This document shows, piece by piece, positions 1 to 15,508 of a stretch of DNA of 64,000 bases (position 1 is the stretch's first letter; each line of letters opens with the position of its first letter). Made by a program: the position numbers and the translations under genes. This DNA is from an uncultured delta proteobacterium (GTDB lineage: Bacteria; Desulfobacterota; Desulfobacteria; Desulfobacterales; B30-G6): the NCBI GenBank assembly GCA_963823335.1, contig CAWGLD010000002.1, positions 105,044 through 169,043 on the forward strand. The letters are read 5' to 3'. Below the pieces are notes generated by a model. That model had not been told where the DNA came from, did not search any database, and saw nothing but the letters and a program-made list of their open reading frames with translations.

Positions 1-398
1 CCCGAGTTGGCTTCAATCCCGGCGATGCTGACATCCGGGTGACCATGGGTGCCGCCGTGGCGTCTCAGATTAATGAACTGTTCTTCAGATATGATACCCA
101 TGGCATACAGCACCGCATAGTGTCCCGGCGCATCATGACCCTTGGAGGAAAAATAGATGTCCCGGTCAGGATGGGAGATACCGACCTCTGAAATATTCAT
201 TTCGGCGAAGTAGAGGGCGGTAACGATGTCCAGTGAACTGAAACTGGAGCCCAGGTGTCCGGATCCGGCACGTTTGACAGTGGAGATTGCATTGGCGCGA
301 CACATGTCGGCCAACAACTGCAGCTTCGTATACTTGTCAATGTCTGCCGCGCGAACGCGTTTAAATTCTTTTTCAGGAATCAATTTGATTTCGATCAT
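1..398 (-). CDS. Transketolase family protein, N-terminal TPP-binding part (runs off the window edge)
   Basis: Manual translation from ATG at 398 gives MIEINLIPEKEF...AGSGHLGSSFSSLDI...DRDIYFSSKGHDAPGHYA...LRRHGGTHGHPD...GIEANS, with the transketolase SGHxG, SKGH and GHP motifs. RBS AAAGGAG upstream. Not in the ORF track because it is truncated. Confidence 0.85.
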   Translation of the reverse strand, partial: MIEIKLIPEKEFKRVRAADIDKYTKLQLLADMCRANAISTVKRAGSGHLGSSFSSLDIVTALYFAEMNISEVGISHPDRDIYFSSKGHDAPGHYAVLYAMGIISEEQFINLRRHGGTHGHPDVSIAGIEANS

Positions 399-435
399 TA
401 TTGTCGGCGCTCCTTTTAAATTCTACCTAGAATAG

Positions 436-1194
436 TTATTTCGTGTATGCAGATTGACTGACGTGAGGCAACCTTGCATCACCTTTTTGAATCGTGTGCT
501 CGGCCAGTTGCCAGTCATATTCATTGTTGACGTCAAATCCTTCATAATCGGTGGTCAAAAACGGCATCACCACGTTTCCAGCGATGGTTCGATCTTCAAG
601 AACCACCCGCGACCATGCAATCTCCAGACTTGCATTTTGAACAAATATTTCCGGCAAAGAGGGGTATTGGCTGCTATGCCAGGGTTGTTCGGCCGGTCCC
701 AGCGGCAGCAGAGGCATCATCCGACGGCCCCGAACGACCCACATTTTTGCTGGATGCTGGGTACACTTTTCCACCGCCCGCAAAGAGTCGACTCCCTGTT
801 GGGACGAAAATTCCTGCCAAGCCCGCTGGATGGTTGCCGGCAGCCGAAACGGACTGGTTGGCCGCAATATGCTGAAACAGTCATACCTGTGATCCGCCTC
901 CTGCAGGCGCTCAAGGGTGAACGCCACCCATTCAATGTCGGGTGACTGATCGCCGGCCAACGTTGCAGGCCTCAGAAACGGAACCTGTGCCCCATAGTTT
1001 TTTGCTATGTCCGCGTAGTGTTCCGAATCCGTTGAGACGATCACATCGCTGAAAATGCCACTGTCGATGGCTGCTGCAATCGTATACGCGATGAGCGGAT
1101 GACCTGCCAGGGGTCGTATGTTTTTGTCCGGCACACGCTTGGAACCCGCCCGAGCCGGTATCAGTGCAACAACGCTGTAATCTTCCATAGTCAT
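436..1194 (-). CDS. neuA: Acylneuraminate cytidylyltransferase (CMP-nonulosonate synthetase)
   Basis: ALIPARAGSKRVPDKNI, IVSTDS, PFLRPATLAGD, LRPTSPFR and DVNNEYDW motifs. Start probably 1194 or 1188 rather than 1218. Confidence 0.88.
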   Translation of the reverse strand: MTMEDYSVVALIPARAGSKRVPDKNIRPLAGHPLIAYTIAAAIDSGIFSDVIVSTDSEHYADIAKNYGAQVPFLRPATLAGDQSPDIEWVAFTLERLQEADHRYDCFSILRPTSPFRLPATIQRAWQEFSSQQGVDSLRAVEKCTQHPAKMWVVRGRRMMPLLPLGPAEQPWHSSQYPSLPEIFVQNASLEIAWSRVVLEDRTIAGNVVMPFLTTDYEGFDVNNEYDWQLAEHTIQKGDARLPHVSQSAYTK

Positions 1195-1198
1195 TTCT

Positions 1199-2671
1199 TT
1201 AAAGTTTCTCGGGATCAATATTAATGATGATATTTTTCAAGTCAGAATAGACATCCAGGGCTTCTGTTCCGGGCTCCCGCGTGCCGTTGCCGGATTGCTT
1301 CAATCCGCCAAAAGGCATATGGGGTTCGCTGCCGAAGGTTCCGGCGTTGACAACAGCGACGCCTGTCTGAACCTTCCGGCAAAACTGCATGGCCCGGTGG
1401 AAGTCACGGGTGTGAATACAAGCGGTGAGGCCATAGGGTGAGTCGTTGGCCAATTGCAGTGCCTGGTGGAAATCAGCCACGCGGTAAAGACAGGTTATGG
1501 GTCCGAACAGTTCGGCGGTGGATATGTCGTCTTTGGGGTTGGCATTTTCAATCAGGGTGGGTGCCATGTAAAATCCACCCTTATGGGCATCATCGGTCAT
1601 CCGGTGGCCGCCGGATAAAACCACGGCGCCATTTTTCTGAGCATTCTGGATCGCGGTGAGCATGTTATTGAGCTGTTTTTCATTGATTACCGGGCCCAGG
1701 TCATTATCATTTCCGGGGCCGACACTGAGCGCCTGGGTACGTTCGATCAGCATGTCGCGAAATTGATCATAAACGGCATCAAAGATGATGATACGACTGC
1801 CTGACGCACAGCGCTGTCCGGCATTACTGAAAGCCGAAAGAAGCACCCATTTTGCGGCTGACTCCAGATCGGCATCGTCACAGACGACCAATGCATTTTT
1901 GCCGCCCAATTCAAGTGATACCTTGGCCAGTCGCTGGCCGGCAACTGTGGCGATATGACGACCTACTGCGGTTGATCCGGTGAAGCTGATAACATCCACT
2001 TCTGGATTGTCGACCAGAGGTGCGCCGGCTTCAAGACCGTATCCCTGGATAACATTGAGAACTCCCGGCGGCAGACCCGCTTCGTGAGCTAGTCGGGCAA
2101 AATACCAGGCTGTAGCAGGTGTATCTTCCGCAGCTTTCAATACTGCTGTGTTGCCGCAGATTAATGCGGGGAATACCTTCCAGGCCACGTTGGCAATCGG
2201 CGTGTTGGCTGCAATGATCAATGCTGCAACCCCCAGCGGCTGGCGCACGGTCATGGCATACTTGTTGGGTACTGCACTGGTGGTGGTACGACCGTAAAAC
2301 CGTCGGCCTTCGCCGGCTGCAAATTCTCCTTGAGCAATGGCGCCGCCGGTCTCACCAAGCGCTGCACCCAAAGACATGCCGGTTTCCATTGCAACGATCC
2401 CGGCGATCTCTTTTTGATGTCTGCGCATGGCTTGAGCGATTTCGTGAAGGATATCGCCGCGCTGCACCGGGGTTTGTTCCGCCCAAGCTGCCTGGGCAAC
2501 TCTGGCTGCCTGAATTGCATTTTGTACATCCTGTGACTCGGACCGTGCAACAGCACACAGTTTGCGACCGGTATCCGGTGACAACTTGTCAAAAGTTCTT
2601 CTTGATAGTGCAGCACACTCTTGACCGTCGATCCAGTTTGGAATCGTATCCGGGAGGTTGTTCGGTTTCAT
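1199..2671 (-). CDS. NAD(P)-dependent aldehyde dehydrogenase
   Basis: SFTGSTAVG, LELGGKNA, catalytic Cys in NAGQRCAS, ELFGPI and PFGGLKQSG motifs. Confidence 0.92.
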   Translation of the reverse strand: MKPNNLPDTIPNWIDGQECAALSRRTFDKLSPDTGRKLCAVARSESQDVQNAIQAARVAQAAWAEQTPVQRGDILHEIAQAMRRHQKEIAGIVAMETGMSLGAALGETGGAIAQGEFAAGEGRRFYGRTTTSAVPNKYAMTVRQPLGVAALIIAANTPIANVAWKVFPALICGNTAVLKAAEDTPATAWYFARLAHEAGLPPGVLNVIQGYGLEAGAPLVDNPEVDVISFTGSTAVGRHIATVAGQRLAKVSLELGGKNALVVCDDADLESAAKWVLLSAFSNAGQRCASGSRIIIFDAVYDQFRDMLIERTQALSVGPGNDNDLGPVINEKQLNNMLTAIQNAQKNGAVVLSGGHRMTDDAHKGGFYMAPTLIENANPKDDISTAELFGPITCLYRVADFHQALQLANDSPYGLTACIHTRDFHRAMQFCRKVQTGVAVVNAGTFGSEPHMPFGGLKQSGNGTREPGTEALDVYSDLKNIIINIDPEKL

Positions 2672-2710
2672 CGTAACTCCGTTTTATGTGTAAACGTATG
2701 TTCATTCTTT

Positions 2711-2848
2711 CCTAAGCTGAGCGATTGTCGAGGTTGCTGTAGCTACAAGAAAGATGCTGTTTCGCTATAGTGGACTATGCGGTATGGCATCTGACGCCGT
2801 AGATGCGGTAAGATCGGCAAACCCAACGGGTTTCAAATTTTAAGAATT
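2711..2848. repeat. 138-bp intergenic repeat, family A, copy 1
   Basis: Reverse complement of 33502-33639, ungapped, 12 mismatches by manual alignment. Confidence 0.85.
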
Positions 2849-2926
2849 CAAATGAATCAAATCCTTTGAAAATATTTCTAAATCCCATATACATAAAATT
2901 TGAATCGCTCATCTTAGGTATTTCTA

Positions 2927-3739
2927 TCACCATGCCGTGAAACCACCATCCACAACCAGTTCAGCACCGGTTACATAAGCGGATGCCCTTGAGGCCAGAA
3001 AAAGCAGTGGCCCACGCAGATCTTCCGCGACAGCCATTCTTCCCATGGGGACACGATTACAGAATTTGCGTTTGAATTCTTCGTCCTGGCCGCCTAAGAC
3101 ACCGCCGGGTGATAGCGCATTCACCCGCACGCCGTGTGGGGCCCAGTGTGTTGCCAGATAACGGGTCAGATTTATAACTGCGGCCTTGGAGGCACCGTAA
3201 GCCGGAGGTTTGAGAAACGGCAGTTCTCCGGAAAGGTGGTCGTAAAATCGCGCGTCAGGTGAAACGCCGGCATACAAAGAACCGATATTGATAATCGAAC
3301 CCCGGCCGGCATTGACCATCCGGGAACCAAATACCTGGGATACCTGAAATAGCCCCAGGGTATTGACCTCGAGAATCTCGCGATTTTCCTCCAGCGGTAT
3401 ATCTTCCAGACGATATGCTTTGGCCGAAAGGGCAGGAGGGCGGTCGATACCGGCATTGTTTACCAGAATGCTGGGTGTTCCAAAGGCAGAAAAACAACGT
3501 TGGTATGCGTCTTCCAGGGATCGACGATCCCTGACATCGGCGCGATCCAGCTTCAAGAGAGTTTTATCATAACATGCCTGCAGTCTGGCAAAATCATCGG
3601 AGATTTTTGATTCGGCCAGATCAAGTGCGAAAACTGAGGCGCCTGCACCCAGCAGGGCTTCTATCCAGATGGGACCTAACTTACCCAGCGCACCTGTTAC
3701 GACAGCAATTTCGGTCTCTAAGTCAAACAAATTTTTCAC
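2927..3739 (-). CDS. Short-chain dehydrogenase/reductase
   Basis: TGALGKLG, NNAG, catalytic YGASK and VRVNALSPGG motifs. Confidence 0.92.
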   Translation of the reverse strand: MKNLFDLETEIAVVTGALGKLGPIWIEALLGAGASVFALDLAESKISDDFARLQACYDKTLLKLDRADVRDRRSLEDAYQRCFSAFGTPSILVNNAGIDRPPALSAKAYRLEDIPLEENREILEVNTLGLFQVSQVFGSRMVNAGRGSIINIGSLYAGVSPDARFYDHLSGELPFLKPPAYGASKAAVINLTRYLATHWAPHGVRVNALSPGGVLGGQDEEFKRKFCNRVPMGRMAVAEDLRGPLLFLASRASAYVTGAELVVDGGFTAW

Positions 3740-4812
3740 GATGCCGACCCTGCTAGATGCTCGGAGCCGTTTAAAGCTTCAAAGGTGATGGCATCGTCTT
3801 CTTGCATGGCTGCACGGGTCACCCTGCCGACCACTTTATCGATATCGTAAGGCGGTAGACCATCACCTGGTGACTTGAAGGCAATGTCTTCCCGGCGTAT
3901 CATATGACCGGCCGGCAAATCACGCGCGGCGACCATTTTTTTGCTCATCTTGATGATGGGGTTTCTCTCGCTCTCATAAGTCTGCTTGACGCCGTCACCC
4001 ATGGCGGCTTTGGTACGTTGCAGGTCTCTGATCAGCTTTCGAAAACCAGTGGGTTCCAGTGAAAAGGCATGATCTGTGCCTTTCAGGGTATGGTTAAGGG
4101 TAAAGTGCTTTTCGATCACCCGGGCGCCCAGCATATAAGCTGCAACGGCCATGGCAATGCCGTTGTCGTGGGAAGACAGACCAACGGTGGTATTGGGAAA
4201 CCGCTCGCGGAAGGTCGTGATCACATTCAGATTGAGCTCTTCAAATTCTGCTGGATAACCTGCGGTGCACTGGAGGATACAGAGCTGCTGATTGATAGGC
4301 ATGATGGCATCATAGGCCCTGTTGACGTCCTCCATGGTACCCCCGCCGGTGCTGAGAATCATCGGCTTGTTAAACTTGGCAATGTGGGTCAGCAAGGGAA
4401 TGTTTTTTAAATCCCCGGAAGCGATTTTATAAATCGGGATGTCGAGTTTGGCCAGGAAATCGGCGCTGTCAAAATCAAAGGCGGTTGAAAACATCGTAAT
4501 TCCGATTTCATCAGCGTAATCCATCAAGGTTTTGTATTCAATTTCACCGAACTCCAAAAATTCCCGATGCTCGCCGTAGGTTGCACCATAGCTGTTGGGA
4601 TTGTCATAAGGTTTGTTATAACCGGCCTTGGTAAACAGGCTCCGATTGTGTCTTTTCTGGAGTTTGACAGCGTCAGCTCCGCTTTCTTTGGCTACCCGGA
4701 ACATCTCCTTGGCGGTTTCGAGCTCACCTTGATGGTTGTGCCCGATCTCGGCTATCACATAGCAATCACTATTGTCTTGAATGACCTTTCCATTTAGTGA
4801 AAGTTTACGCAT
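3736..4812 (-). CDS. neuB: N-acetylneuraminate/nonulosonate synthase family protein with C-terminal SAF domain
   Basis: IAEIGHNHQG, ADAVKLQKR, YKIASGD, GLSSHD and IEKHFTL motifs, plus an SAF-like tail (VAARDLPAGH...KSPGDGL). Confidence 0.9.
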   Translation of the reverse strand: MRKLSLNGKVIQDNSDCYVIAEIGHNHQGELETAKEMFRVAKESGADAVKLQKRHNRSLFTKAGYNKPYDNPNSYGATYGEHREFLEFGEIEYKTLMDYADEIGITMFSTAFDFDSADFLAKLDIPIYKIASGDLKNIPLLTHIAKFNKPMILSTGGGTMEDVNRAYDAIMPINQQLCILQCTAGYPAEFEELNLNVITTFRERFPNTTVGLSSHDNGIAMAVAAYMLGARVIEKHFTLNHTLKGTDHAFSLEPTGFRKLIRDLQRTKAAMGDGVKQTYESERNPIIKMSKKMVAARDLPAGHMIRREDIAFKSPGDGLPPYDIDKVVGRVTRAAMQEDDAITFEALNGSEHLAGSAS

Positions 4813-4891
4813 TGTTATTCCTCCTCAAAATCTCTATTTTAACTGCATTGAACTTTTTATAATGTCAAAACATTTTACTCGAACTTATTTT

Positions 4892-5059
4892 AGCTTGGAC
4901 GCCAGGAAGCTGGGATGCCGCTGTCCGCTGATACTGTCAGCCACCCTCCAACCCTGTATCCCCCTCGGACCCTTGAACCCCCTTTTAAGCTGGGACGCCA
5001 GGATGCTTGGAAGCTGGGATGCCGCTGTCCGCTGACACTGTCAGCCACCCTCAAACCCT
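4892..5059. repeat. Imperfect direct repeat, two copies of about 65-70 bp
   Basis: AGCT(T/G)GGACGCCAGG...AAGCTGGGATGCCGCTGTCCGCTGA(T/C)ACTGTCAGCCACCCTC(C/A)AACCCT at about 4892-4955 and 4988-5059. Confidence 0.8.
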
Positions 5060-5569
5060 TTTTTTTGCCAATGTTCTTTCAAACAAATCACAGACCTCTC
5101 TCACAGCGCCATGACCGCCCGGACGTCTGGTCTGATAGAGCGCGATGGATATCACATCCTGATACGCGTCCTGAACCACAATGGGCAAAGCCACAGATGC
5201 AAGACAGGGCAGGTCGTTGATATCGTTGCCCACAAAAGCGACCTCCCCCAGGGTGAGATTCTTTTCCTGAGCGATGTCGTTCAGCACTGCCAGTTTGTCC
5301 TGACAGTCCTGAATACAGCGAATTTTTAGTTTACGCGCCCTGGCTGACACCACAGGATTGGCTTCAGTGGATATGATAACCGTTTCAATGCCAAATTTTT
5401 TCAGTTTTTGCAAACCAATACCATCACTGCGAAAGCATCGCACGGCTTCGGTGCCGTCTTGGAATACAAAAACCATATTATCGGTAAAAACGCCGTCAAA
5501 ATCAAAGGCAATTAGACGGATACGACGGATAATCTCATCGATGCCAGGGTCTGTTCGTTTTTTGGGCAT
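5051..5569 (-). CDS. KdsC-family HAD phosphatase (KDO-8-P/KDN-9-P phosphatase-like)
   Basis: FDFDGVFTDN, SDGIGL, FVGNDINDL and GGHGAVREVCD motifs. Confidence 0.88.
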   Translation of the reverse strand: MPKKRTDPGIDEIIRRIRLIAFDFDGVFTDNMVFVFQDGTEAVRCFRSDGIGLQKLKKFGIETVIISTEANPVVSARARKLKIRCIQDCQDKLAVLNDIAQEKNLTLGEVAFVGNDINDLPCLASVALPIVVQDAYQDVISIALYQTRRPGGHGAVREVCDLFERTLAKKRV

Positions 5570-5586
5570 AGTGGGCTGTAAGTCTT

Positions 5587-7392
5587 TTACTCTTTACCAG
5601 GGGTTAAGTCAACGCAGCCGGTACCCGGGTTCGGTATCGATATCTGCTGTGGGGTGATCGGCTCCGGTTTATTTTCTTCCTGCAGGATTCTTCCATCCTG
5701 GATACGGTAGGTTTTATCGGCTATCGTAACCAGAGCCGACTGATGCGAGATGGTCAGAATGGTGAGCTCTCCGCGAAGCTGTTGCAGGGTATCGCATACA
5801 GCGGCCTCACTTTCCGGATCCAGACCGCTGGTGGCTTCGTCTAAAATCAGCAGTTTCGGTTTGTGCACCAGGGCCCGTGCAATGGCGATACGCTGTCTTT
5901 GCCCTCCGGAGAGTTTGCCTCCGCGCTCGCCGACCATACTCTCCATAGCCTTGGGCATTCTATTGACAAACTCCCACGCACCGGCGGCACGCAGGGCATC
6001 CTTTGCATCGGCTGCACTCAGAGCAGGATCTCCCAGGGTGATGTTGTTCAGCACCGTATCGTGCAGTAATATGGTTTCCTGGGGAATATAGCCGATCATT
6101 CTGCGCCAGTTTTTCAGATTTAACTCAGCCAACGGCACGTGGTCGATCCACACCTCTCCCTGCTGGGGCCGCAACAGACCGGTCACAATATCCACCAGGG
6201 TTGTTTTTCCCGACCCGGAAGGGCCCACAATGGCAATAATCTCACCCTTGGGAAAGGTGAGCGACACATCTTGCAGCACTGGCTGGGTGTCGTAAGCAAA
6301 AATCAACTGTTTCAGTTCAATGGCTCTTTCCAGCGAAGGTATCTGGGTACCACCCATCTCCTCGCGTTCGCTTTTCACCTTTTGAAGGGTTTTCTGTAAT
6401 GACCAGTAGGCGCTTTCAAAAATAATCATTTCTTGATAACGTTCTTGAACCCGGTTCAGTCGCTTCAATAATCGGGAAACAAGAAACGCCAGCACGATGA
6501 CGCTGGCCAGTGACATTTGCCAGTAAGTCAACAATACGTATACTCCGCCTGCCAGGAAGACCGTAACCAGTATGTGCTGGAAGGCCAAGAGAAATTCCCT
6601 GTTCAGAACTTCTTTTTGTAACGCCTTGTTCAGGTGGTGAGTCTTTTTTTTCATCAGGTGGTCGGATGCTTCCTCGCGCGCCATGGCCCGCAAAGGTTTT
6701 ATGGACTGCAAGGTATCGGTCAACAATGCAAACATCGATTTCCGGAGGCTTGTTTGACGATTTCCGGCATGGCGGGATTTTCTGAGAAATCGTTTTAAGG
6801 CGTACAGGATTAAAAGACCTACCGTGAGCGAGACCAATGTCGCTTTCCAGGAGACCAGAAACGCCATGATACAGAAAATAATGGCATGCAAAAACTCGGC
6901 GGTCATGATAATGCCGTTCTTATAGGCTTTCGATGTCCTGATTGTTTCACTCATGATGGAATTTGAAAGCTTTCCGATGGGTTGCTGGATGAAATACTGC
7001 CACCGGCAGACGCGCAGGGCGTGCAGCAATTCGAGTCGCAGATTCGTGGCGACCTGGGCGACGGTATATCCGATTTGTCTGTTAGCCAGCAGCATGATTC
7101 CGTTTCTCAGGGTTACGGTGGCGATAAGAATGATCAGGAGCAGGCCCAGGGTGGGTGTAATGCCCAGAAAAGCAAAGCCATCCGCAACCATCTGTTCCAG
7201 CACGGAAATTTTGGCACCATTTTTCGCCAAAGCATCCGATCCTGCCCCGGTGGGGTTGCCGACGGTAATGCCGATGATGGGCAAGAGCATCGTAAGCCCG
7301 ACACCTTCTATGATACCCGCTAACAACAACGACAGCAGCATGAGGATGCTTGCGAGTGGATAATTGCGGGAAAATGTTATAAAAAAACGCAT
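5587..7392 (-). CDS. ABC exporter, fused permease/ATPase (MsbA/PglK-like flippase candidate)
   Basis: N-terminal TM domain, Walker A GPSGSGKT, LSGGQRQR signature and LLILDEATSGLD. Confidence 0.88.
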   Translation of the reverse strand: MRFFITFSRNYPLASILMLLSLLLAGIIEGVGLTMLLPIIGITVGNPTGAGSDALAKNGAKISVLEQMVADGFAFLGITPTLGLLLIILIATVTLRNGIMLLANRQIGYTVAQVATNLRLELLHALRVCRWQYFIQQPIGKLSNSIMSETIRTSKAYKNGIIMTAEFLHAIIFCIMAFLVSWKATLVSLTVGLLILYALKRFLRKSRHAGNRQTSLRKSMFALLTDTLQSIKPLRAMAREEASDHLMKKKTHHLNKALQKEVLNREFLLAFQHILVTVFLAGGVYVLLTYWQMSLASVIVLAFLVSRLLKRLNRVQERYQEMIIFESAYWSLQKTLQKVKSEREEMGGTQIPSLERAIELKQLIFAYDTQPVLQDVSLTFPKGEIIAIVGPSGSGKTTLVDIVTGLLRPQQGEVWIDHVPLAELNLKNWRRMIGYIPQETILLHDTVLNNITLGDPALSAADAKDALRAAGAWEFVNRMPKAMESMVGERGGKLSGGQRQRIAIARALVHKPKLLILDEATSGLDPESEAAVCDTLQQLRGELTILTISHQSALVTIADKTYRIQDGRILQEENKPEPITPQQISIPNPGTGCVDLTPGKE

Positions 7393-7428
7393 AATGATAC
7401 CGTGATCGTTAACCCCTTCTTTTCAGAC

Positions 7429-8622
7429 TTACCTGGTCGTTGTCGTCGCTTTTTTCACGGCCGTAAATGCCTTGCAGATATGTGTTATCTGTTCCGGTGT
7501 GTGCCCGGCGCTGACACTGCTACGCAGCAGGTAATTGCCGTCCGGTGTGGCTGGTGGAAAAACCAGATTGACGTAGACACCCTGTTCCAGCAGACCGCTC
7601 CACAGGGCGAAGGCTTCGGTTTTGTCTTCCAGCCGCACGGTAACAATGGGGCTCAGTTCCGGTCCCGTCTCGAAATCCAATTCCTGTAGCGTGGTATACA
7701 ATCTCTCCGCGTTTTCCCAGAGTCGCTGACGCAGTTCGGGTCTGTTCTGTATGATTTCCAATGCTTTGCGGGTGGAGGCAATTACAGAGGGAGACGACGA
7801 GGCCGTGAAAATATAAGGGCGACTCGCGTATCGAACCAGGTTGAGTTCAGGATGATTGCTGGTGCAAAAACCGCCAATGGCTCCCAGGCTCTTACTAAAG
7901 GTGCCGACCACAAAATCGACACTGCTTTCCACACCGGCTTCCTCGGCAAGCCCGCGTCCATTGGTACCCAGCACACCCAGGGAGTGGGCTTCATCCACCA
8001 AAAGATAGGCCCCGTATTTTTCTTTGGCGGCAGCAATGCCCGCCAGAGGCGCGCGGTCCCCCAGCATGCTGTAAAGACCTTCCACCACAATCAGGACATT
8101 GGTGTTTCGTTTTTCAAGGCGCTGCAGCCGTTTTTCCAGGTTTTGAACATCGTTGTGGCGAAAACGATGGATCTCGGCATTTCCCATTCGACAGCCGTCA
8201 TAAATGCTGGCGTGGCAATCCGCATCCAGCAGGATGACTTCACCACTACCCATCAGGGTGGAGAGCATGGCCAGGTTAGCGACATAACCGGTGGAAAACA
8301 CAATTGCCTCCTGACAATTGTAAAAATCTGCCAGTTCGCGCTCCAATGCCACATGTCCTGAAAAAGTCCCGTTGGCCATTCTGGAACCGGTAGTGCCGGT
8401 ACCTTCTTCGCGTGCGGCATCACAAGCGGCTTTGATACAATCGGCATCAAAGGAAAGACCCAGATAATTATTGCTACCGGCCAGAATCATGGGACGACCG
8501 TCTACGATGGCCTCGGTTCCGGACACAATCTTTTGCATTACGATATTGAAAAAATTATCACAGCATTGCTCTAATTCCTGACGGGTCTCGGCCAGTTGCT
8601 GAAATTTATCAAAAATAGTCAT
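7429..8622 (-). CDS. spt: Serine palmitoyltransferase (PLP-dependent alpha-oxoamine synthase)
   Basis: IFDKF N-terminus typical of proteobacterial SPT, GSNNYLGL, GSRMANGT, FSTGYVANL, DEAHSLG and GTFSKSLG (PLP Lys). Adjacent to ACP, reductase and acyl-AMP ligase as in known ceramide operons. Confidence 0.82.
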   Translation of the reverse strand: MTIFDKFQQLAETRQELEQCCDNFFNIVMQKIVSGTEAIVDGRPMILAGSNNYLGLSFDADCIKAACDAAREEGTGTTGSRMANGTFSGHVALERELADFYNCQEAIVFSTGYVANLAMLSTLMGSGEVILLDADCHASIYDGCRMGNAEIHRFRHNDVQNLEKRLQRLEKRNTNVLIVVEGLYSMLGDRAPLAGIAAAKEKYGAYLLVDEAHSLGVLGTNGRGLAEEAGVESSVDFVVGTFSKSLGAIGGFCTSNHPELNLVRYASRPYIFTASSSPSVIASTRKALEIIQNRPELRQRLWENAERLYTTLQELDFETGPELSPIVTVRLEDKTEAFALWSGLLEQGVYVNLVFPPATPDGNYLLRSSVSAGHTPEQITHICKAFTAVKKATTTTR

Positions 8623-8624
8623 CA

Positions 8625-8873
8625 TCAATCATCCCCGTTTAGTTTTTGAATCTGTAATACAAAATCTTTCACGGTACACACGTCCGGCATTATATTTAAT
8701 GGTATGGAGATATCGAAACGGTCTTCCACCGATTCCAGGATTTTCATGACTTTCAGCGAATCCAGGTCCAGGTCGGCGACCAGATCCGTGTCTTCATGGA
8801 TATCCTGCTCCTGTGGAACGAACGTTCTTAGTATCTGTTCGAGCCCTTGCAATACATTTTCATATTCTGTCAT
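8625..8873 (-). CDS. Acyl carrier protein dedicated to sphingolipid synthesis
   Basis: DLDLDSLKVM phosphopantetheine site, acidic 82-aa protein immediately upstream of spt. Confidence 0.9.
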   Translation of the reverse strand: MTEYENVLQGLEQILRTFVPQEQDIHEDTDLVADLDLDSLKVMKILESVEDRFDISIPLNIMPDVCTVKDFVLQIQKLNGDD

Positions 8874-9829
8874 TCGATACCTCCCTGATTTTTCACTGTA
8901 AATACCGGCCCTAAAGTTTGCCGTAGCCCCTCCGGTAACAAAACGCGAGGTTCCCAGCCAATGGCGTTGCTCAAAGCGGTGTTATCACAAACCCAGTCGG
9001 AATGGCTCAATTCGCGCACTTTACCGGGGGTCAGCATGGGTGCATAGCCGAAAGTCCGGGAGGCAAGCAGATTCAATGCTGAGACCAGCCATACCAGAAC
9101 GATTGGTATTTTTATGCTGACCACGGATCTCGTGCGCAGATGTTTAAACGTATTGATAACATCGTGCCATGAATAGCCCCCGGAATACCCATCGTGCAGT
9201 TCAAAGGTGTCGGACATACCCTCATTACAATCCAACCATTGCACAATTGCTTCGGCAAGATCCTTCACATAGAGCAAGGAAAAACGCGCAGAGCCGGAGC
9301 CGAGTACCGGTGCGATGCCTTTTGCCATCCACTCAAAGACCGGTCGCAGTTCTCGATCACCTGGACCATATATGGCACATGGTCGATAAATGGTCCAGGG
9401 TAATCGGTGGGAATTCTCAACCAGCAATTTTTCCCCCAAGCGTTTACTGGCAGCATAATGCGACAGGTGCGGCTCCCTGGCTGCCAGTGACGATATCAGC
9501 AGAAAACGCGGCGCTGGCTGTTGCGCGGATGCCGCCCGGACAAGACGTGCCAAACCGTCTGTGTTGACCCTGTTGAATTGTTCACGCGTGGCGCCCCTTA
9601 CAGCACCAGCGCAGTGTACCACAGCCGTTACCCCGTTTACCAGGCGGTGCAGACTATCCAGATCTGCAAGGTCACCTTCAATCCATTTAACGGCAAGATC
9701 TGCCGGCCTTTTCCAACGTGACGCCGGTCGGATCAAAGCCTGAATCCTGTATCCTGTATTTGTCAACTGTTTTGCCAGTTCCGCCCCGACAAAACCCGTT
9801 GCGCCTGTTAGTGCAATCACCTCAGACAT
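8870..9829 (-). CDS. cerR: NAD-dependent epimerase/dehydratase family, ceramide reductase (CerR)-like
   Basis: TGATGFVG, ISSLAAREP and YAASK motifs. Position between acyl-AMP ligase and ACP/spt matches the Caulobacter arrangement. Confidence 0.72.
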   Translation of the reverse strand: MSEVIALTGATGFVGAELAKQLTNTGYRIQALIRPASRWKRPADLAVKWIEGDLADLDSLHRLVNGVTAVVHCAGAVRGATREQFNRVNTDGLARLVRAASAQQPAPRFLLISSLAAREPHLSHYAASKRLGEKLLVENSHRLPWTIYRPCAIYGPGDRELRPVFEWMAKGIAPVLGSGSARFSLLYVKDLAEAIVQWLDCNEGMSDTFELHDGYSGGYSWHDVINTFKHLRTRSVVSIKIPIVLVWLVSALNLLASRTFGYAPMLTPGKVRELSHSDWVCDNTALSNAIGWEPRVLLPEGLRQTLGPVFTVKNQGGIE

Positions 9830-9985
9830 GTGATTTTTCCGACAGCATCAATTTATTTCTTCATAAATTATGATGGCAACACTAATTGCCAACTTCAGCA
9901 AACACTCTTCCTCTATCGATCATCCAAAACGGCTTGATCGGTCTGTAAATTTTGTTTATATGTTTTTATGGTAATAAATGCAAGG

Positions 9986-11767
9986 TTAGACGGCCCGCCG
10001 ACGGAGCGTCGCAGCGTAAAAATCCTCCGCGGGGCCGCTGGAGTGCTCAGCAGCGATTTGTTCCAGATACTCTTTCTGCGCTCCGGAGCGAGACAGTTTT
10101 CCAGACGTCGTTCTATGTAAGGTGTTTCGGGGTACCAACTCTATCAGGCAGTCAATGCCAAACTCTTCTCGAATCTGGCGGTGCAATCGCTTCCGCAAGT
10201 CGGCGCGTTTTTCTTCATCGGATTCGCGGCACTCCACCATCATAACGGCTCTTTCTTCTCCATTGGCGCCGGTTATCGAGAATGCCGATGTATCTCCGGT
10301 GCGTACCTCGGTCTGCTGTTCCGCCAGGTATTCAAGGTCCTGGGGCCAGATATTGCGACCGTTGAGAATAATCAGGTCTTTTTCACGGCCTGTAATCACG
10401 ATACTTTTTCCAACGCGATAGGCCAGGTCTCCGGTGTTTAACCAGCCATCGGGAGATAAAACGTCACGGGTGGAAAGGAGATCCCCAAAATAGCCGGACA
10501 TGATACTGGGACCGCGGACATAGAGTGTGCCACAATGCCGTTCTGGTAAGACCTCTCCCTGCTCATTTCTTACTTCTACTTCATATCCGGGCAGCGGGGC
10601 ACCGCAGTTGGTGAAACTGCTTGTGTGCAGGGATTTGTTGTTCTGTGAAGGATGCAGCGGTATGGCTTTTTGCTCCGTTGCCAGTGTATCGGTATCCACA
10701 TGGTCGACATCAAGCCCCTGGCCGAGGGGTGAAAAAGTTACGGCAAGAGAGCACTCCGCCATTCCGTAGCACGGTGTAAACGCGTGCCGGTCAAAGCCGG
10801 CGGGCGCCAGAAGGTCGGCGAAACTGTCGAGCGGTTCGGTACGAATCGGCTCCGCTCCGACACCGGCAACCCGCCAGGAGCTGAGATCGAAATTTTGGAC
10901 TTCTTTCTCGCGTACGCGTCTGGCCGCCAATTCGTATCCGAAGGGCGGGCTGACGGAAAGGGTCCCTTTGTTTTGCGACATCAATGTCAGCCAAAGCCGG
11001 GGTCGCATGGCAAAATCCCGTGTGCTCAGGTAGTCCACTGACAACTGGGCAGCCATAGGAGCCAGTACGAGGCCGACGAGTCCCATATCGTGAAAGTAGG
11101 GAAGCCAGGAGACCGCCCGATCTTCCGACCGGACATGAATACCATGTTTAATAATGGCAAACAGGTTGTTGAGCACGGCTTTCTGGGTGATCATGACACC
11201 ACGAGGAAAGCGTGTGCTGCCGGAAGTATATTGCAGGTATGCTATCTCATGAGGTTCCGAGGGGTGCAAGGGGGCGCTGGATTCCGGAAGATCATAAAAC
11301 TCCTGGGGACTGCCTATGAAACGCATTTTCAGATCCTGGGCAGCTTCCTTTAAATAAGAAAGAAACCCCTCGGGTGCCATACCTATATCTGCCTGGCAGA
11401 TGGAGAGGAGCCTCCTCAGTTGAGAAACGTATGCTTTTCGCCCACCCAAGTGAACTGAAGCCGGCAGCGGTACGGGTATTAAACCGGCGTACTGGCAGGC
11501 ATAAAAGAATCGCATGAAATCAGGGTGGGTATCGGCCACGATCGCCACACGCGAACCGCGGTTTGTGCCTAGATGAATTAGGCGGCGCGCCAGCGCCTGC
11601 GCATCTCTTTTAAGTTCTGCGTATGGCAACCTGGCATATAATTTTAACGCGCTGGTATAATAGTTGTATCCTGTTTTTCCCTGAGCTGCATAATCGAGCG
11701 CTTCTGCTAACGTAGAAAAATCAGCGATCCGCAACGGCAGACCGCTCACGGCAGGTGTAGCATCCAT
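9986..11767 (-). CDS. Fatty acyl-AMP ligase / acyl-ACP synthetase
   Basis: YLQYTSGSTRFPRG, SWLPYFHDMGL, YGMAE, WLNTGDL, GREKDLII and TTSGKLSR motifs. Confidence 0.9.
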   Translation of the reverse strand: MDATPAVSGLPLRIADFSTLAEALDYAAQGKTGYNYYTSALKLYARLPYAELKRDAQALARRLIHLGTNRGSRVAIVADTHPDFMRFFYACQYAGLIPVPLPASVHLGGRKAYVSQLRRLLSICQADIGMAPEGFLSYLKEAAQDLKMRFIGSPQEFYDLPESSAPLHPSEPHEIAYLQYTSGSTRFPRGVMITQKAVLNNLFAIIKHGIHVRSEDRAVSWLPYFHDMGLVGLVLAPMAAQLSVDYLSTRDFAMRPRLWLTLMSQNKGTLSVSPPFGYELAARRVREKEVQNFDLSSWRVAGVGAEPIRTEPLDSFADLLAPAGFDRHAFTPCYGMAECSLAVTFSPLGQGLDVDHVDTDTLATEQKAIPLHPSQNNKSLHTSSFTNCGAPLPGYEVEVRNEQGEVLPERHCGTLYVRGPSIMSGYFGDLLSTRDVLSPDGWLNTGDLAYRVGKSIVITGREKDLIILNGRNIWPQDLEYLAEQQTEVRTGDTSAFSITGANGEERAVMMVECRESDEEKRADLRKRLHRQIREEFGIDCLIELVPRNTLHRTTSGKLSRSGAQKEYLEQIAAEHSSGPAEDFYAATLRRRAV

Positions 11768-11991
11768 AGCGACTATAGCCTCCTATATGCAATCAGGTCA
11801 GTGAAGCATCTTTCCATAACAGAAATAGCCTTACTAACCTAAAATCCGAAAATCAACACTGATATCGTTTTTTTTCATATCTAAATACAATTCATTTACC
11901 GACATGGCTTTTACCTGATTTAGACTTAAATGTCAAATGCTTGATGGATTAATTTTAAAAGCCGACTAAAATTAAGCTTACTAATATATAT

Positions 11992-12795
11992 TCAAGTTTG
12001 CTCTTTTGCAACATTTTTTTCTACCAATTCCCAGTCACTGACCGAATCGACGTCCACAGCAGCGTCGGCAAAAGGCATGATAACGGCACCCGCCTTAAAT
12101 CCAAAACGCTTTGAAATAATAGATAATATGTCATAAAGGGACAGCTTTCCCATCAGATAACGCAGCACCGCTACCCATCCAAATTTTCGAATCATACGAA
12201 AGGGCTTTTTGCGCTCGGACTCTACCTGCCGCCAGTAATTCGCTGCCAGACGTGCCTCCGGGGTCAGGAAAGCGAACAGGTTACATCCGCAATAAGCACC
12301 ATCCTGCAACCGTGTGGCGGTTCTACGCGTTTCGGGGTGGGCTTTCATCACATCCTCGTGCCGGGCAACGCCGACAACCACATCGCAATTTGTGGTCCTT
12401 GCCTCGCTACAAAAATAGTCCACCATCCGTGGGGTCAACATGGCATGGTCCGCCGTTGTCAATAAAACCGGAATGTCCTTGGGCAGGGTTTGCAGAACAT
12501 GATAGGCACTTGAACTTGGTGTCTCCCGGTTTTCAAACCAGGCGATTTTTCCGCTTGCAATCAGATCCAGAAGACCGGATTCCCGGTCTACAATGTGTTT
12601 GGGCGGGCCACACAAAATCCTCTGGTCGATTTCCCGGGATGCATCCAGCGCGCTTAAAACGCGAAAAACCATCGGGATGCCGCCAATGGGTGCCAAGGAT
12701 TTACATGGAACACCAGCGGCCTTGGCAACGGGGTCATCGGGGCTGCGGTCTGCGGCAAGAACCAGGGCCGTAAATTTATCTTGTGGCTGAATCAT
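11992..12795 (-). CDS. MobA-like NTP transferase, sphingolipid head-group pathway candidate
   Basis: ALVLAA...DPVAKAAGVPCKSL, LLTTADHA, YCGCNLF and AAVDVD motifs. Lies within the sphingolipid cluster. Confidence 0.78.
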   Translation of the reverse strand: MIQPQDKFTALVLAADRSPDDPVAKAAGVPCKSLAPIGGIPMVFRVLSALDASREIDQRILCGPPKHIVDRESGLLDLIASGKIAWFENRETPSSSAYHVLQTLPKDIPVLLTTADHAMLTPRMVDYFCSEARTTNCDVVVGVARHEDVMKAHPETRRTATRLQDGAYCGCNLFAFLTPEARLAANYWRQVESERKKPFRMIRKFGWVAVLRYLMGKLSLYDILSIISKRFGFKAGAVIMPFADAAVDVDSVSDWELVEKNVAKEQT

Positions 12796-12883
12796 CGTGT
12801 CGACGATTTTATTCCGTCATTTAAGACCTGGTCCTTTGGGCCGGGTCAGAGATATGTGGCTATGCCGATGGTGGCAGTTACAC

Positions 12884-13181
12884 AAATCCGAAGCACGAAA
12901 TTCGAAATCCTAAACAATATCGAATGATCCAAATTCGAATGATCAAAACAAGACCTTGGAAATAATCGTTCAAGCACTATGTTTGAACCGAAAAAGCGAG
13001 CGCATTCCCCGTAGGTTCTGCCGTTCGGCAGTGCTTCGCATGCTGCGGGGTTAGCGAGCGAATCTAGATTAGACAGAATTCCTTACGGTCGAACATTCCT
13101 CGTAGCTTGCTGCGAGCTTCAATCATTTGAGCATTTGATATTTGGATTTGTTTCGCATTTCGATATTTGGATTTAGAATTT
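12884..13181. repeat. Inverted heptamer-periodic arms enclosing an expanded family-B element (12983-13122)
   Basis: Left arm AAATCCGAAGCACGAAATTCGAAATCC..., right arm ...TTTCGATATTTGGATTTAGAATTT. Inner element TTGAACCGAAAAAGCGAGCGCATTCCCCGTAG...CGTAGCTTGCTGCGAGCTTCAA. Confidence 0.7.
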
Positions 13182-13259
13182 ATCACACCCTGAATATGCA
13201 TAATATTAATCCCTTATAGGGCCGAACCAGTGCCGGGCCCTTTGGACCCGGGTATCTAC

Positions 13260-14447
13260 TCAGCTGTCACTCCCTGCCAACTGCTTGCTGTAAATACGGT
13301 AGGTTTTATAGACCCAGCCGCCAATAGATTCGATTATGGCGCGCATTCCCTTATTGTCCTCCAGGATCCAGGAAAGTTCCACTTCTTTAATACCGCGGCT
13401 TACGCCATATTGCTGGGTACTGCTGATTACGCCGAATGCAAGGGCTGCCCCCATGAGGCTGTCGTGAAATCGGCAGCGAACGCCCATCAGGGGGATTCGT
13501 GCCGATTTCGGGTATCTTACTTTGAGACGCCATAATATTTTAAGCCAGCCAAAGGGCAAAAGCCTGCCGTTTAGATCCCGAATGACCTCATTTAAGTTCG
13601 GCAGGACAACTATGAAGGCGGCCGGTTCGCCATCGACTTCGGCGATTTTCACCAGTTTTTCATCGGCCAGCATTTTTAAATCCTTACCCAGGTGCTCGAA
13701 TTCCTTGTTCGTGAAAGGCACAAAACTCCAGTTCTGTGACCAGGCATCATTGAAAATATCCCTGATTATCTGTAATTCATCAGAAAAGTTAGACATGTTC
13801 AGGTTTCTGATGTGCATTCGATTCTTGGCCCTCGCCAGGATGGATTTAGCTGCCGCGGGCATCTCAACTGTCGAGTTTATGTTATACGCCAGCAGGTCTT
13901 TTGTTTTGCGATAGCCATTTTCTTCGATTCGGTCGCCGTAATAGGGACACGCATGGCCCATCATCATCGATGGTGGGGTGTCGAAACCGTCCACCAGCAA
14001 TCCCAGTTCCTGATTGATGGACAGGTTAAAAGGGCCGTAGATCCGTTGCATTCCCCGGTTGCGCAACCATGCTTCCGCCTCATTCAGCAAGGTTTGAAAA
14101 AGCCGGCTGTTGTCCGCTGCTTCCAACATCCCGAAAAAACCGGTGGCATCCTGATAGCGGTCAATATGCAGCTGGTCGATTTGAGCACTGACCCGTCCTA
14201 CAGGTTTACCATCCTGGTAGGCAACCCATGAACAAAATTTTGCATGTTCAAAATAGGGATTTTTGGGAGAAAGATGCATACGACGTTCAAGGAGCAGGGG
14301 CGGAACCCACATCGGGTCATTGGCATAAAGCGACCAGGGAAGGCGAATAAAGTCATTTAAGGTGTTACGGTTTTCCACCTTTACGATCTTTATTTTTTCG
14401 TCGGGATGCCCGGGTTGATGGCTCCCTGGCACTTTCGCAAAATTCAT
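13260..14447 (-). CDS. bcerS: GNAT-fold N-acyltransferase, bacterial ceramide synthase (bCerS)-like
   Basis: FIRLPWSLYANDPMWVPPL, VGRVSAQID, GPFNLSINQELGLLVDGF, FNDAWSQNW and ELSWILEDN motifs. RBS GAGG before ATG 14447. Confidence 0.78.
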   Translation of the reverse strand: MNFAKVPGSHQPGHPDEKIKIVKVENRNTLNDFIRLPWSLYANDPMWVPPLLLERRMHLSPKNPYFEHAKFCSWVAYQDGKPVGRVSAQIDQLHIDRYQDATGFFGMLEAADNSRLFQTLLNEAEAWLRNRGMQRIYGPFNLSINQELGLLVDGFDTPPSMMMGHACPYYGDRIEENGYRKTKDLLAYNINSTVEMPAAAKSILARAKNRMHIRNLNMSNFSDELQIIRDIFNDAWSQNWSFVPFTNKEFEHLGKDLKMLADEKLVKIAEVDGEPAAFIVVLPNLNEVIRDLNGRLLPFGWLKILWRLKVRYPKSARIPLMGVRCRFHDSLMGAALAFGVISSTQQYGVSRGIKEVELSWILEDNKGMRAIIESIGGWVYKTYRIYSKQLAGSDS

Positions 14448-14716
14448 GCAATTGTCCTCGGTCTGATTTCTGGGGGCATATGACGCCCAAATATCGTTTC
14501 GGGGCATGATACACAGGCAGTAAAACCAGGTCAATATTAAAAACGTACGTTGATATTGCCTATCTTTTTAGATATATTTCATTTTTAGCAAAGAACTCTT
14601 TACAAAAAAAATTAATTTTGTATTGTAAAGAGTTTTCGGCAGTGGGTAAAGTTATAGAAAATACCTTGGATTCTTCAATTGATGAACCTGATTATGTTAC
14701 AAGTGGAAATAACCCT

Positions 14717-15508
14717 ATGAAAGCAGTCATATTAAGTGCAGGGCAGGGGAAACGTCTGCTGCCACTGACAGCGGATCGCCCAAAATGCATTCTTCCCATT
14801 AGGGGACAGACTCTCGTTGAATGGCAAATTGACGAACTTGCCAAATGTGGAATCGACCAGGTGACCGTTGTCGTGGGGTATCGTGCGCACAAAGTCGAAG
14901 AAATTCTGCGCGCACGTTATAGTTCCAACCGGGTACGTACGGTTTACAATGAGGCTTTTGCTGTTTCAGACAACCTGGTGAGCTGCTGGACTGTCCAGGA
15001 CGAGATGGACGAAGAATTTATTTTACTGAACGGCGATACCTTGTTTGAGGCGGCTGTGTTGAAGCGTTTACTTGGCACAGGCGGTCATCCCGTAACCGTG
15101 GTCATCAACCAGAAAAATGCCTATGACGCGGACGACATGAAGGTCGAACTGGAAGGGTGCCGACTGGTCAAGATCGGCAAAGATCTATCGCCCGGTCAGG
15201 TTCACGGTGAATCCATCGGTATGATCCTGTTTCAAGACCAGGGCCCGATGTTGTTCCGCGACGCCATGGAGAAAGCCCTGCGCGATCCTGCTGCACAGAA
15301 AAAATACTATCTGTCGGTCATCGATGATCTGGCCCGGAAATTTCCGGTGTGGACCTGCTTGATTAACGGTCTGCAGTGGTGTGAAGTCGATTTTAAAGCA
15401 GACCTTAAACAGGCGGAAAAAGTCGTAGCGGCCTGTTGCCCCGACCGGCAGAGGAACGCCGGAGACGACACCTGCCAGTCAACCGGGGCAACCCTGTCGA
15501 ACCTCTAA
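14717..15508 (+). CDS. Nucleotidyltransferase (LicC/phosphocholine cytidylyltransferase family)
   Basis: MKAVILSAGQGKRL, PKCIL, LLNGDTLF, DADDMKV, GESIGM and WCEVDF motifs. Start at 14717 preferred. Confidence 0.85.
   Translation: MKAVILSAGQGKRLLPLTADRPKCILPIRGQTLVEWQIDELAKCGIDQVTVVVGYRAHKVEEILRARYSSNRVRTVYNEAFAVSDNLVSCWTVQDEMDEEFILLNGDTLFEAAVLKRLLGTGGHPVTVVINQKNAYDADDMKVELEGCRLVKIGKDLSPGQVHGESIGMILFQDQGPMLFRDAMEKALRDPAAQKKYYLSVIDDLARKFPVWTCLINGLQWCEVDFKADLKQAEKVVAACCPDRQRNAGDDTCQSTGATLSNL

Follow-up and report, generated by a model that had tools for sequence, protein, structure and literature searches.

Some bacteria are known to make sphingolipids that have sugar or phosphoglycerate head groups, and Sphingomonas, which carries uronic acids on ceramide, is the textbook case of a diderm that is naturally without lipopolysaccharide (LPS). 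In the available sections of two reports, the Caulobacter sphingolipid region holds a ceramide kinase, a cytidine diphosphate (CDP)-diacylglycerol (DAG)-synthase-like protein, a CDP-alcohol transferase, a phosphoesterase, two nucleotidyltransferases, LptF2/LptG2 and a putative flippase (PMC11324152, PMC10331486). According to the accessible part of a preprint, LptF2/LptG2 of this locus are needed for sphingolipid transport, and Sphingomonas is without LpxC, LpxB and WaaA while keeping Lpt, with spt beside lptFG-like genes (bioRxiv 10.64898/2026.04.12.717747). Here we describe a ~36-kb sphingolipid locus in a Desulfobacterales genome (G000, a 93.9% complete draft of 4.37 Mb in 11 contigs), in which a ceramide operon is followed by a cassette predicted to make an ulosonic acid activated with cytidine monophosphate (CMP). 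The left 22 kb of the stretch analysed, 64,000 nucleotides called the window from here on (G000:C2:105044-169043), belong to this locus. The best explanation, which on balance we favor, is a locus for a ceramide with a phospho head group, an ulosonic acid and sulfate, the product of which would stand in for LPS.

Every described component of the C. crescentus region CC_1152-CC_1168 has a family-level counterpart in this locus, the match to the CDP-DAG-synthase-like protein being weak. The Caulobacter region differs in that, as far as the available sections describe it, it contains no ulosonic acid cassette, no TIGR04396 transferases and no sulfotransferases. Furthermore, Caulobacter keeps LPS and a second, canonical LptFG, whereas G000 has one LptFG and no lipid A genes were found in it. 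The likeness to Sphingomonas, as far as the accessible text goes, lies in the missing LpxC, LpxB and WaaA, the retained Lpt components and the position of spt beside lptFG-like genes. However, Sphingomonas belongs to another phylum, and the decoration predicted here consists of a phospho head group, an ulosonic acid and sulfate.

An initial annotation had described eleven genes running from ceramide synthesis through an ABC exporter into a sialic-acid-like pathway. All eleven open reading frames are found on the minus strand at the places given there, with gaps of 36 bp between spt and the ABC gene and 17 bp between the ABC gene and the HAD phosphatase gene, and it is nearly certain that the genes are as described:

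3-398, minus strand: transketolase-like thiamine diphosphate (ThDP) enzyme, N-terminal 132 of 646 amino acids (PF00456/PF02779/PF02780)
436-1218, minus strand: predicted CMP-ulosonate synthetase, NeuA/KdsB type (CTP_transf_3; PF02348, 86.9 bits)
1199-2671, minus strand: aldehyde dehydrogenase (ALDH; PF00171, 503 bits)
2927-3739, minus strand: short-chain dehydrogenase (SDR; PF13561, 140.9 bits), with a 4-nt overlap with the neuB stop
3736-4812, minus strand: NeuB-family ulosonic acid synthase with a SAF domain (PF03102, 266 bits; PF08666)
5051-5569, minus strand: KdsC-type HAD phosphatase, predicted to act on ulosonate phosphate (TIGR01670, 111.7 bits, cut-off 106.95)
5587-7392, minus strand: ABC exporter (MsbA/PglK/HepA-like), candidate lipid flippase (PF00664 and PF00005)
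7429-8628, minus strand: serine palmitoyltransferase (Spt; NF047599, 623.1 bits, cut-off 500)
8625-8873, minus strand: dedicated acyl carrier protein (ACP; PF00550), with 4-nt overlaps with its neighbors
8870-9829, minus strand: NAD-dependent epimerase/SDR-family reductase, candidate CerR (PF01370, 102 bits)
9986-11767, minus strand: fatty acyl-AMP ligase (FAAL), for the acyl-ACP synthetase role (NF006624, 785.2 bits, cut-off 600)

The initial annotation had proposed that the synteny of spt, neuB and neuA be compared across genomes, and this comparison shows it to be conserved and not a chance neighborhood. When the NeuB-like protein was used as query against species genomes, 80 loci with 68-93% identity were kept from 245 relatives; the nearest homologues are in Desulfobacterales and Desulfosarcinaceae metagenome-assembled genomes, one of which is labelled an Olavius-associated 'Delta 1' proteobacterium. 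Synteny was counted in the 48 loci whose sequence reaches 5 kb or more upstream of the neuB homologue; in 31 of these the order FAAL-CerR-ACP-Spt-ABC-(HAD or transferase pair)-NeuB was found on one strand. The phosphatase gene lies between the ABC gene and neuB, as in the window, in 16 of the 80 loci, and in 4 loci a pair of TIGR04396 transferase genes takes its place, which suggests that this junction has been rearranged and not broken. The adjacency of spt and cassette thus persists through internal rearrangements as well as ~35-40% protein divergence, and in the window the phosphatase gene, which belongs to the cassette, is found at its spt end, 17 bp behind the ABC gene.

Co-occurrence was examined in an even set of 201 genomes of the window's order, with at least 62% identity as the limit for an spt orthologue. 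The orthologue was found in 20 genomes, the cassette neuB in 14 and both in 11; of these 11, 10 have the two on one strand no more than 4 kb apart. Two other genomes (G030, G109), whose contigs break where neuB is expected, carry a sulfotransferase gene as well as SDR, neuA and both genes of the transferase pair. With 50% identity as the lower limit, the close TIGR04396 subfamily occurs in 15 of the 201 genomes, all 15 with spt, versus a base rate of 20/201. Six further carriers (G201-G204, G390 and G552) also have spt, so that 21 of the 21 transferase-bearing genomes tested contain the orthologue; among the six, G390 is a second gammaproteobacterial carrier and G552 is of Desulfobacterales type. 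In three gammaproteobacterial genomes and one Geobacteraceae genome the cassette is not near spt, and all four have an spt orthologue elsewhere. Two genomes with a cassette and no TIGR04396 gene in view, G205 (Anaerolineales) and G555 (cyanobacterial), gave no spt and only BioF-like matches at 33-36% identity. In a sample of ~300 genomes of the gammaproteobacterial class the association test is underpowered, with the transferase subfamily in 2/301 genomes and spt in 13/300.

The ceramide module itself is readily recognized. Spt, ACP and the acyl-activating ligase beside spt were all matched by NCBIfam or Pfam models, while CerR and bCerS were assigned by family (NAD-epimerase and GNAT, respectively) and conserved position and not by a specific model. 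The position of the CerR candidate is kept in every spt locus examined. The bCerS candidate, a 424-amino-acid GNAT protein, is likewise kept in spt loci, its nearest Atlas clusters are PF00583 proteins of 380-420 amino acids, and a PDB sequence search with it gave chance-level matches only. The ABC exporter scores below all NCBIfam equivalog cut-offs. Its gene lies directly downstream of spt in 17 of the 19 other spt loci of the order, including loci that have no cassette, which suggests that the exporter is part of the lipid core and that the cassette was appended behind it. Spt matches with 32-42% identity were treated as BioF/Kbl-like and not counted. Three of them, in L104, L106 and L110 (genomes G085, G141 and G150; 38-42% identity), may represent a second and more distant type of Spt: each adjoins a homologue of the 424-amino-acid GNAT protein (33-40%), and 2 of the 3 loci also contain a CerR-like fragment. 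Such loci may be a further cluster, of sphingolipid or sulfonolipid type, in Desulfobacterales that have LPS.

The GNAT gene lies among the genes to the right of FAAL, which correspond family by family to the Caulobacter head-group genes:

11992-12795, minus strand: MobA-like nucleotidyltransferase, family counterpart of CC_1153 (PF12804, 44.6 bits)
13260-14534, minus strand: 424-amino-acid GNAT protein, candidate bCerS (PF00583, 29.5 bits)
14618-15508, plus strand: sugar/alcohol-phosphate nucleotidyltransferase, counterpart of CC_1152 (PF12804 and PF00483)
15659-16735, plus strand: LptF, apparently of sphingolipid-locus type, sole LptF of the genome (TIGR04407, 334.8 bits)
16743-17810, plus strand: LptG, apparently of sphingolipid-locus type, sole LptG of the genome (TIGR04408, 333.7 bits)
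17856-18869, minus strand: metallophosphoesterase, counterpart of CC_1158 (PF00149, 50.3 bits)
19174-20370, plus strand: CDP-alcohol phosphotransferase, counterpart of CC_1159 (PF01066, 40.3 bits), kept in locus L118
20400-21386, plus strand: DAGK_cat lipid kinase, candidate ceramide kinase (CpgB/CC_1160; PF00781, 40.3 bits)
21497-22453, plus strand: 318-amino-acid Tam41-like protein, possible counterpart of CC_1161 (PF09139, 21.6 bits, E 1.6e-4)

A CPG2-type set, that is, a DAGK-type kinase, a CDP-alcohol transferase, a phosphoesterase and two nucleotidyltransferases, is therefore present at the family level, and this correspondence suggests that the lipid part resembles the ceramide-phosphoglycerate system. 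It is very likely, judging from the sequence families, that the locus has a Caulobacter-like core for ceramide and a phospho head group. The role of the CC_1153 counterpart is taken from the available part of PMC11324152. Conservation in related genomes points the same way: the MobA-like gene is kept beside FAAL in spt loci, the CC_1152 counterpart in L118 and L121, and the metallophosphoesterase in spt loci, and all five related genomes examined have a homologue of the DAGK_cat kinase at a distance of 11-17 kb from neuB. The PF09139 (Tam41_Mmp37) match is weak, its 21.6 bits being under the cut-off of 24, and the protein is kept in L118 and L120. L118 (G049:C1:1503000-1522999) is an spt locus without the sugar cassette, in which two CDP-alcohol phosphotransferase genes flank the Tam41-like gene.

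LpxC (searched with two models), WaaA, LpxB, LpxK and KdsA gave no match in G000, and control genomes were positive. LpxC is present in 179 of the 201 genomes of the order; of the 22 without it, two (G194 and G196) were assigned by inference. It was not found in 9 of the 20 spt genomes (completeness 85-100%) versus 13 of the 181 others, and 4 of these 13 are at least 90% complete. WaaA was not found in any of five further LpxC-less spt genomes, and all five controls with LpxC have it. G198, one of these controls, belongs to the same genus as G000 and has no spt, no cassette, no transferases and only a distant LptF match, so that two envelope programs appear to have been swapped within a genus. 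At least part of the cassette or of the transferases is held by 8 of the 9 LpxC-less spt genomes, and in the ninth (G107) the cassette phosphatase lies at a contig start. Taken together, these results make it likely that this genome has no lipid A.

LptD is present in G000 (132.6 bits), as is exactly one LptF/LptG pair; a tblastn search at E<1 returned just those two genes, which match each other. In relatives that have both LPS and spt (G010, G049 and G066) there are two kinds of LptF, with 47-68% versus 24-26% identity to that of the window. The close type lies beside the spt locus in G049, the one genome checked for this, and the distant type beside waaA in G049 and G066. Furthermore, three LpxC-less genomes of family f31 have the spt-linked type only. 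Accordingly placed by its sequence type, the sole LptFG of G000 is in all likelihood of the sphingolipid kind, which fits the role of LptF2/LptG2 in sphingolipid transport given in the accessible part of the preprint (bioRxiv 10.64898/2026.04.12.717747). In G049 there are, moreover, two WaaA-like genes, and next to each lies an LptF gene of the distant type.

The sugar pathway had been called sialic-acid-like. This is upheld for the NeuB and NeuA families (PF03102 and PF02348) and does not extend to an equivalog match for N-acetylneuraminic acid (Neu5Ac) or pseudaminic acid (Pse). The NeuB-like protein scores under the cut-offs of TIGR03569 (312 versus 399.65 bits) and PseI (245.9 versus 340.25), and the NeuA-like protein, a single copy in the genome, under that of PseF TIGR03584 (143.1 versus 205.7 bits). 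The KdsC-type phosphatase, also the sole copy in the genome, reaches 93.4 bits with the Kdn-9-P phosphatase model (cut-off 180) and is a cassette member in loci without spt as well. Genes for amino-sugar precursors (NeuC, PseB/C, LegB/C) did not appear among the 46 proteins of the locus and its flanks that were covered by three Pfam scans; the rest of the genome was not searched for them. The scores below cut-off, the lack of amino-sugar genes and the sole KdsC-type phosphatase together suggest a deaminated ulosonic acid made by the phosphate route, of the kind of 2-keto-3-deoxynononic acid (Kdn) or 3-deoxyoctulosonic acid (Kdo). The product of the cassette is likely a CMP-ulosonic acid different from Neu5Ac, Pse and legionaminic acid (Leg), and probably no sialic acid in the strict sense.

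Further tailoring may be expected. The whole transketolase-like gene (L002:8458-10398) continues to the left of the window, and its product reaches 405.5 bits with the best NCBIfam transketolase model (cut-off 488). In a pairwise HMMER alignment to human transketolase (TKT), with the residue numbers that we take to mark the ThDP, catalytic and phosphate-pocket positions, the ThDP and catalytic positions are kept (His37, His77, His110, Asp155, Asn185, His258 and Glu366). The phosphate pocket is not: Arg318 falls in a gap, Ser345 is replaced by Asp, His416 by Tyr and, with uncertain alignment, Arg474 by Pro. The ALDH gene accompanies the transketolase-like gene in related loci. The SDR, the ALDH and the pocket-less transketolase-like enzyme point to a further tailored ulosonic acid rather than sialic acid. 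In a plausible scheme the SDR would oxidize the tail, the transketolase-like enzyme would take off two carbons and the ALDH would make a second carboxylate. A shorter cassette, neuB-SDR-neuA, was seen in L019, L024, L030, L035, L044, L056, L063, L065, L074, L122 and L123, followed by the transferase pair where the locus extends far enough. None of these loci gave an ALDH match, and all but L122 and L123, in which the transketolase query gave no match, are without a transketolase-like match, which suggests that the ALDH and the transketolase-like enzyme are optional tailoring.

No glycosyltransferase had been visible in the window, and the initial annotation guessed that one might lie beyond its left edge. 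Two intact TIGR04396 proteins were indeed found just there. To the left of position 1, on the same strand, follow the rest of the transketolase-like gene, a TIGR04396 gene (373 bits), a PLD-like gene, a second TIGR04396 gene (341 bits) and a sulfotransferase gene, and farther left degraded TIGR04396 copies, two more sulfotransferase genes and a weak GT4 match. The degraded copies (G000:C2:90351-90875, 94831-95571 and 95511-96197) are split or contain in-frame TGA stops; lying beside the extra sulfotransferases and the weak GT4, they suggest past duplication and decay of a decoration module. TIGR04396 carries the NCBIfam label 'surface carbohydrate biosynthesis' protein, and a match to the BFO_1060 glycosyltransferase domain stays at 47-64 bits (cut-off 200). 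A structure predicted from a 32-sequence alignment (mean column identity 65%) has a GT-B fold, with a predicted local distance difference test (pLDDT) value of 88 and a predicted template modeling (pTM) score of 0.87. Its structural matches are TarL (Z 19.6), UDP-N-acetylglucosamine (UDP-GlcNAc) 2-epimerases (17-19), TagF-like capsule polymerases (17.4), MGD1 (16.8) and TagF (16.3), and a PDB sequence search gave chance-level matches only. The modeled fold speaks for a donor that is nucleotide-activated and would suit an acceptor close to the membrane, and it fixes neither. Sialyltransferases, Kdo transferases, KpsC and KpsS were not among the best 50 structural matches listed, which does not exclude a relationship. 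In one Atlas neighbor cluster of the TIGR04396 protein, Glyphos_transf is found in 19% of the members.

From the gene identities, synteny, co-occurrence and LptFG type observed, and the lipid A genes not found, we propose a scheme in which the structure of the sugar, its attachment to the lipid and the order of the steps are putative. FAAL, ACP, Spt, the bCerS-like GNAT protein and CerR would make ceramide, on which the CpgB-like kinase, the Tam41-like protein, the CDP-alcohol phosphotransferase, the two nucleotidyltransferases and the phosphoesterase would build an anionic phospho head group. The cassette would yield a CMP-activated 3-deoxy-2-ulosonic acid by the phosphate route, through the NeuB-like synthase, the KdsC-type phosphatase, tailoring by the SDR, transketolase-like enzyme and ALDH, and NeuA-like activation. 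The two TIGR04396 GT-B transferases would most likely put the sugar on the sphingolipid at the cytoplasmic face, and the sulfotransferases would add sulfate. The ABC exporter, encoded between spt and the phosphatase gene, may flip the lipid, and the sphingolipid-type LptFG may then pass it to LptD, so that the sphingolipid product would replace LPS. The transfer of the ulosonic sugar to the sphingolipid is a step that we hold to be slightly more likely than not. The organism thus probably coats itself with an undescribed acidic glycosphingolipid instead of LPS. More tentatively, and with rather less confidence, it is possible that several Desulfobacterales lineages gave up lipid A and have an outer leaflet of anionic phospho-glyco-sphingolipid with a new ulosonic acid and sulfate, flipped by the ABC exporter and moved by an Lpt system with sphingolipid-type LptFG. 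In that case the ulosonic acid might be chain-shortened and doubly acidic, and the cassette would play the role that Kdo has in LPS and may allow the loss of LPS.

Several observations weigh against this scheme. The bond between the sugar and the lipid is putative, and so is the donor of the TIGR04396 proteins, the fold of which is nearest to CDP-alcohol phosphotransferases and 2-epimerases, with no sialyl- or Kdo-transferase among the best 50 matches listed. The genome in which no lipid A genes were seen is a draft in 11 contigs. Among the 48 loci, 17 carry the cassette without spt within 10 kb; 10 of these are gammaproteobacterial (Thiohalobacter, Thiogranum and the like), 2 are from Geobacteraceae, 1 from Anaerolineales and 4 of Desulfobacterales type. 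In Gammaproteobacteria spt and the cassette were never on one contig (15 of 15 genomes). In the gammaproteobacterial order, 15 of 45 genomes have the cassette and all 15 of them have spt, but spt is present in 37 of the 45. Within the window's own order, 2 Mb separate spt from the cassette in G065, where the ABC and phosphatase genes sit with the cassette and no ABC gene follows spt, and the spt genomes G049, G179, G092 and G094 showed neither cassette nor transferases. In family f29 (G028 and G107) LptF is of the distant type only, ~50 kb from spt, and an LptF search of G159 gave no match. Finally, the related genomes fall into few lineages, and therefore the counts overstate independence.

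Some of these observations favor an alternative in which the cassette and transferases decorate another surface molecule, such as a capsule-like polymer on a glycerolipid or a glycoprotein, and spt is nearby only through co-regulation of envelope genes and a shared exporter. The Anaerolineales locus, for instance, sets the cassette amid polysaccharide GT1, GT2, GT4 and methyltransferase genes. With the gammaproteobacterial contexts, this suggests that the module is portable and that its acceptor need not be identical everywhere. The resemblance of the transferases to TagF/TarL-type enzymes and TagF-like capsule polymerases, together with the spt genomes that have no cassette, would also fit another acceptor. 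However, the spt-cassette adjacency has survived rearrangement and sequence divergence, a cassette gene is interleaved with the spt operon, and every transferase-bearing genome tested has spt. Moreover, the locus showed no genes for export or priming of a polymer: among the 46 proteins covered by the Pfam scans there were no Wzx, Wzy, Wza or priming phosphoglycosyltransferase families. We therefore consider another acceptor rather unlikely, if still a serious competitor.

The same portability raises the question of an LPS inner-core or lipid A decoration with spt merely nearby, which the initial annotation had named as what would overturn its proposal. In two gammaproteobacterial loci, L053 and L036, the cassette and an LpxL-like acyltransferase gene are divergently oriented, an MsbA-like ABC gene is present in L053 and an O-antigen-ligase-like gene follows the cassette in L036, and both genomes have LpxC. 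However, no LpxC, LpxB, LpxK, WaaA or KdsA was matched in G000, several relatives are alike and controls of the same order are positive; with no lipid A pathway seen, an LPS locus is not a rival here, and we regard this role of the neu genes as highly improbable. The TIGR04396 proteins might instead be phosphotransferases acting on CDP-activated head-group precursors, with the CMP-ulosonate used by another transferase or acceptor, as their best structural matches to CDP-ribitol and CDP-glycerol phosphotransferases (Z 19.6 and 16.3) and the Glyphos_transf members of the neighbor cluster would suggest. Against this, 2-epimerases and other GT-B enzymes give Z-scores that differ by no more than 1-2 units, and the pair accompanies neuB and neuA, not the head-group genes, in all loci seen, including the spt-distant gammaproteobacterial ones. 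This assignment is thus improbable, though less so than an LPS decoration, and transfer of the sugar to the sphingolipid continues to be the reading that we prefer.

The product had been proposed to be a nonulosonate-bearing, ganglioside-like sphingolipid. The coupling of spt and cassette on which this proposal relied is conserved, whereas the comparison with gangliosides does not hold beyond a loose analogy, because the locus already encodes a Caulobacter-like phospho head-group set. If the scheme is right, the likeness to animal gangliosides would be a ceramide-anchored glycolipid with a CMP-derived acidic keto-sugar, functional at most, since the enzymes are unrelated, the head group here probably bears phosphate and sulfate, and the sugar is unlikely to be Neu5Ac. 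A nearer parallel for the cassette is the Kdn route of Bacteroides thetaiotaomicron, with Kdn-9-P synthase, Kdn-9-P phosphatase and CMP-Kdn synthetase. Like phosphate-route Kdn and sialic acid pathways, the locus has a NeuB-family synthase, a KdsC-family HAD phosphatase and a cytidylyltransferase and no UDP-GlcNAc-processing genes; unlike them, it has extra SDR, ALDH and transketolase-like enzymes, and its phosphatase is below the Kdn-9-P phosphatase cut-off. KpsS and KpsC build a poly-Kdo linker on lyso-phosphatidylglycerol. In both cases paired enzymes would move a CMP-ulosonate onto a lipid at the cytoplasmic face before ABC export, but the lipid is a different one, and neither KpsC nor KpsS is among the best 50 structural matches listed.

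We found no paper that joins bacterial sphingolipids and nonulosonic acids, nor, among the matches listed, one that joins lpxC, Desulfobacterales and sphingolipids; a sphingolipid bearing ulosonic acid and sulfate was not found described in the literature searched. According to the available part of one study, which does not describe this locus, Spt-like genes occur in Desulfobacterota, and the Black Sea contains sulfono- and sulfate-bearing 1-deoxyceramides (PMC11334938). The accessible portion of a lipidome of Desulfatibacillum alkenivorans leaves sphingolipids and ceramide unmentioned and is uninformative either way (PMC11181052). If our scheme is true, abundant sulfate reducers of marine sediments would be a second, unrelated lineage in which a sphingolipid replaces LPS, and the recently proposed role of LptF2G2 as sphingolipid carrier would have a natural test case. 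The scheme would also point to a new acidic sugar pathway and predict lipid biomarkers of anoxic sediments that standard lipidomics would miss.

The gene order is interrupted by two larger gaps, of 238 bp between the HAD gene and neuB and 255 bp between the SDR and ALDH genes, both of which contain repeats:

2672-2926, no strand: gap between the SDR and ALDH genes with a dispersed repeat (24 blastn-short matches genome-wide)
4813-5050, no strand: gap between the HAD gene and neuB, made up of two copies of a REP-like dispersed repeat (83 blastn-short matches genome-wide)

No terminator-like site was seen on the coding strand of either gap, and a promoter and terminator scan of both found no site, which speaks neither for nor against an internal promoter. 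Contigs of four estuary metatranscriptomes cover 27-28 of 30 bins of positions 1-15000. Single contigs span the neuB/HAD, CerR/FAAL and FAAL/nucleotidyltransferase junctions, one of them crossing the 4813-5050 gap in a shorter variant; for the spt/ABC junction, no contig listed spans it. These contigs indicate presence in RNA libraries and not a single transcript, and DNA carry-over is possible. In four metatranscriptome contig sets the gaps 12796-13259 and 2672-2926 reach a depth of up to 353 versus ~10 nearby, with many loose ends and with joints that connect the two gaps. Both apparently contain a repeat or small RNA that is dispersed and well represented, and an Rfam scan of positions 1-22000 gave no match at E up to 0.1.

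After the lipid locus follow a gene of the 23S rRNA-intervening-sequence protein family (22711-23082, PF05635) and a DUF6502 gene (23237-24064), neither with an apparent link to it. To the left of the window on the same contig, a dimethylamine methyltransferase (MtbB) gene lies on the plus strand (L001:522-1907, corresponding to G000:C2:85565-86950; PF09505, 482 bits). It has an in-frame TAG at codon 349 in a frame that is open to codon 461, which is the pattern of a pyrrolysine-containing enzyme.

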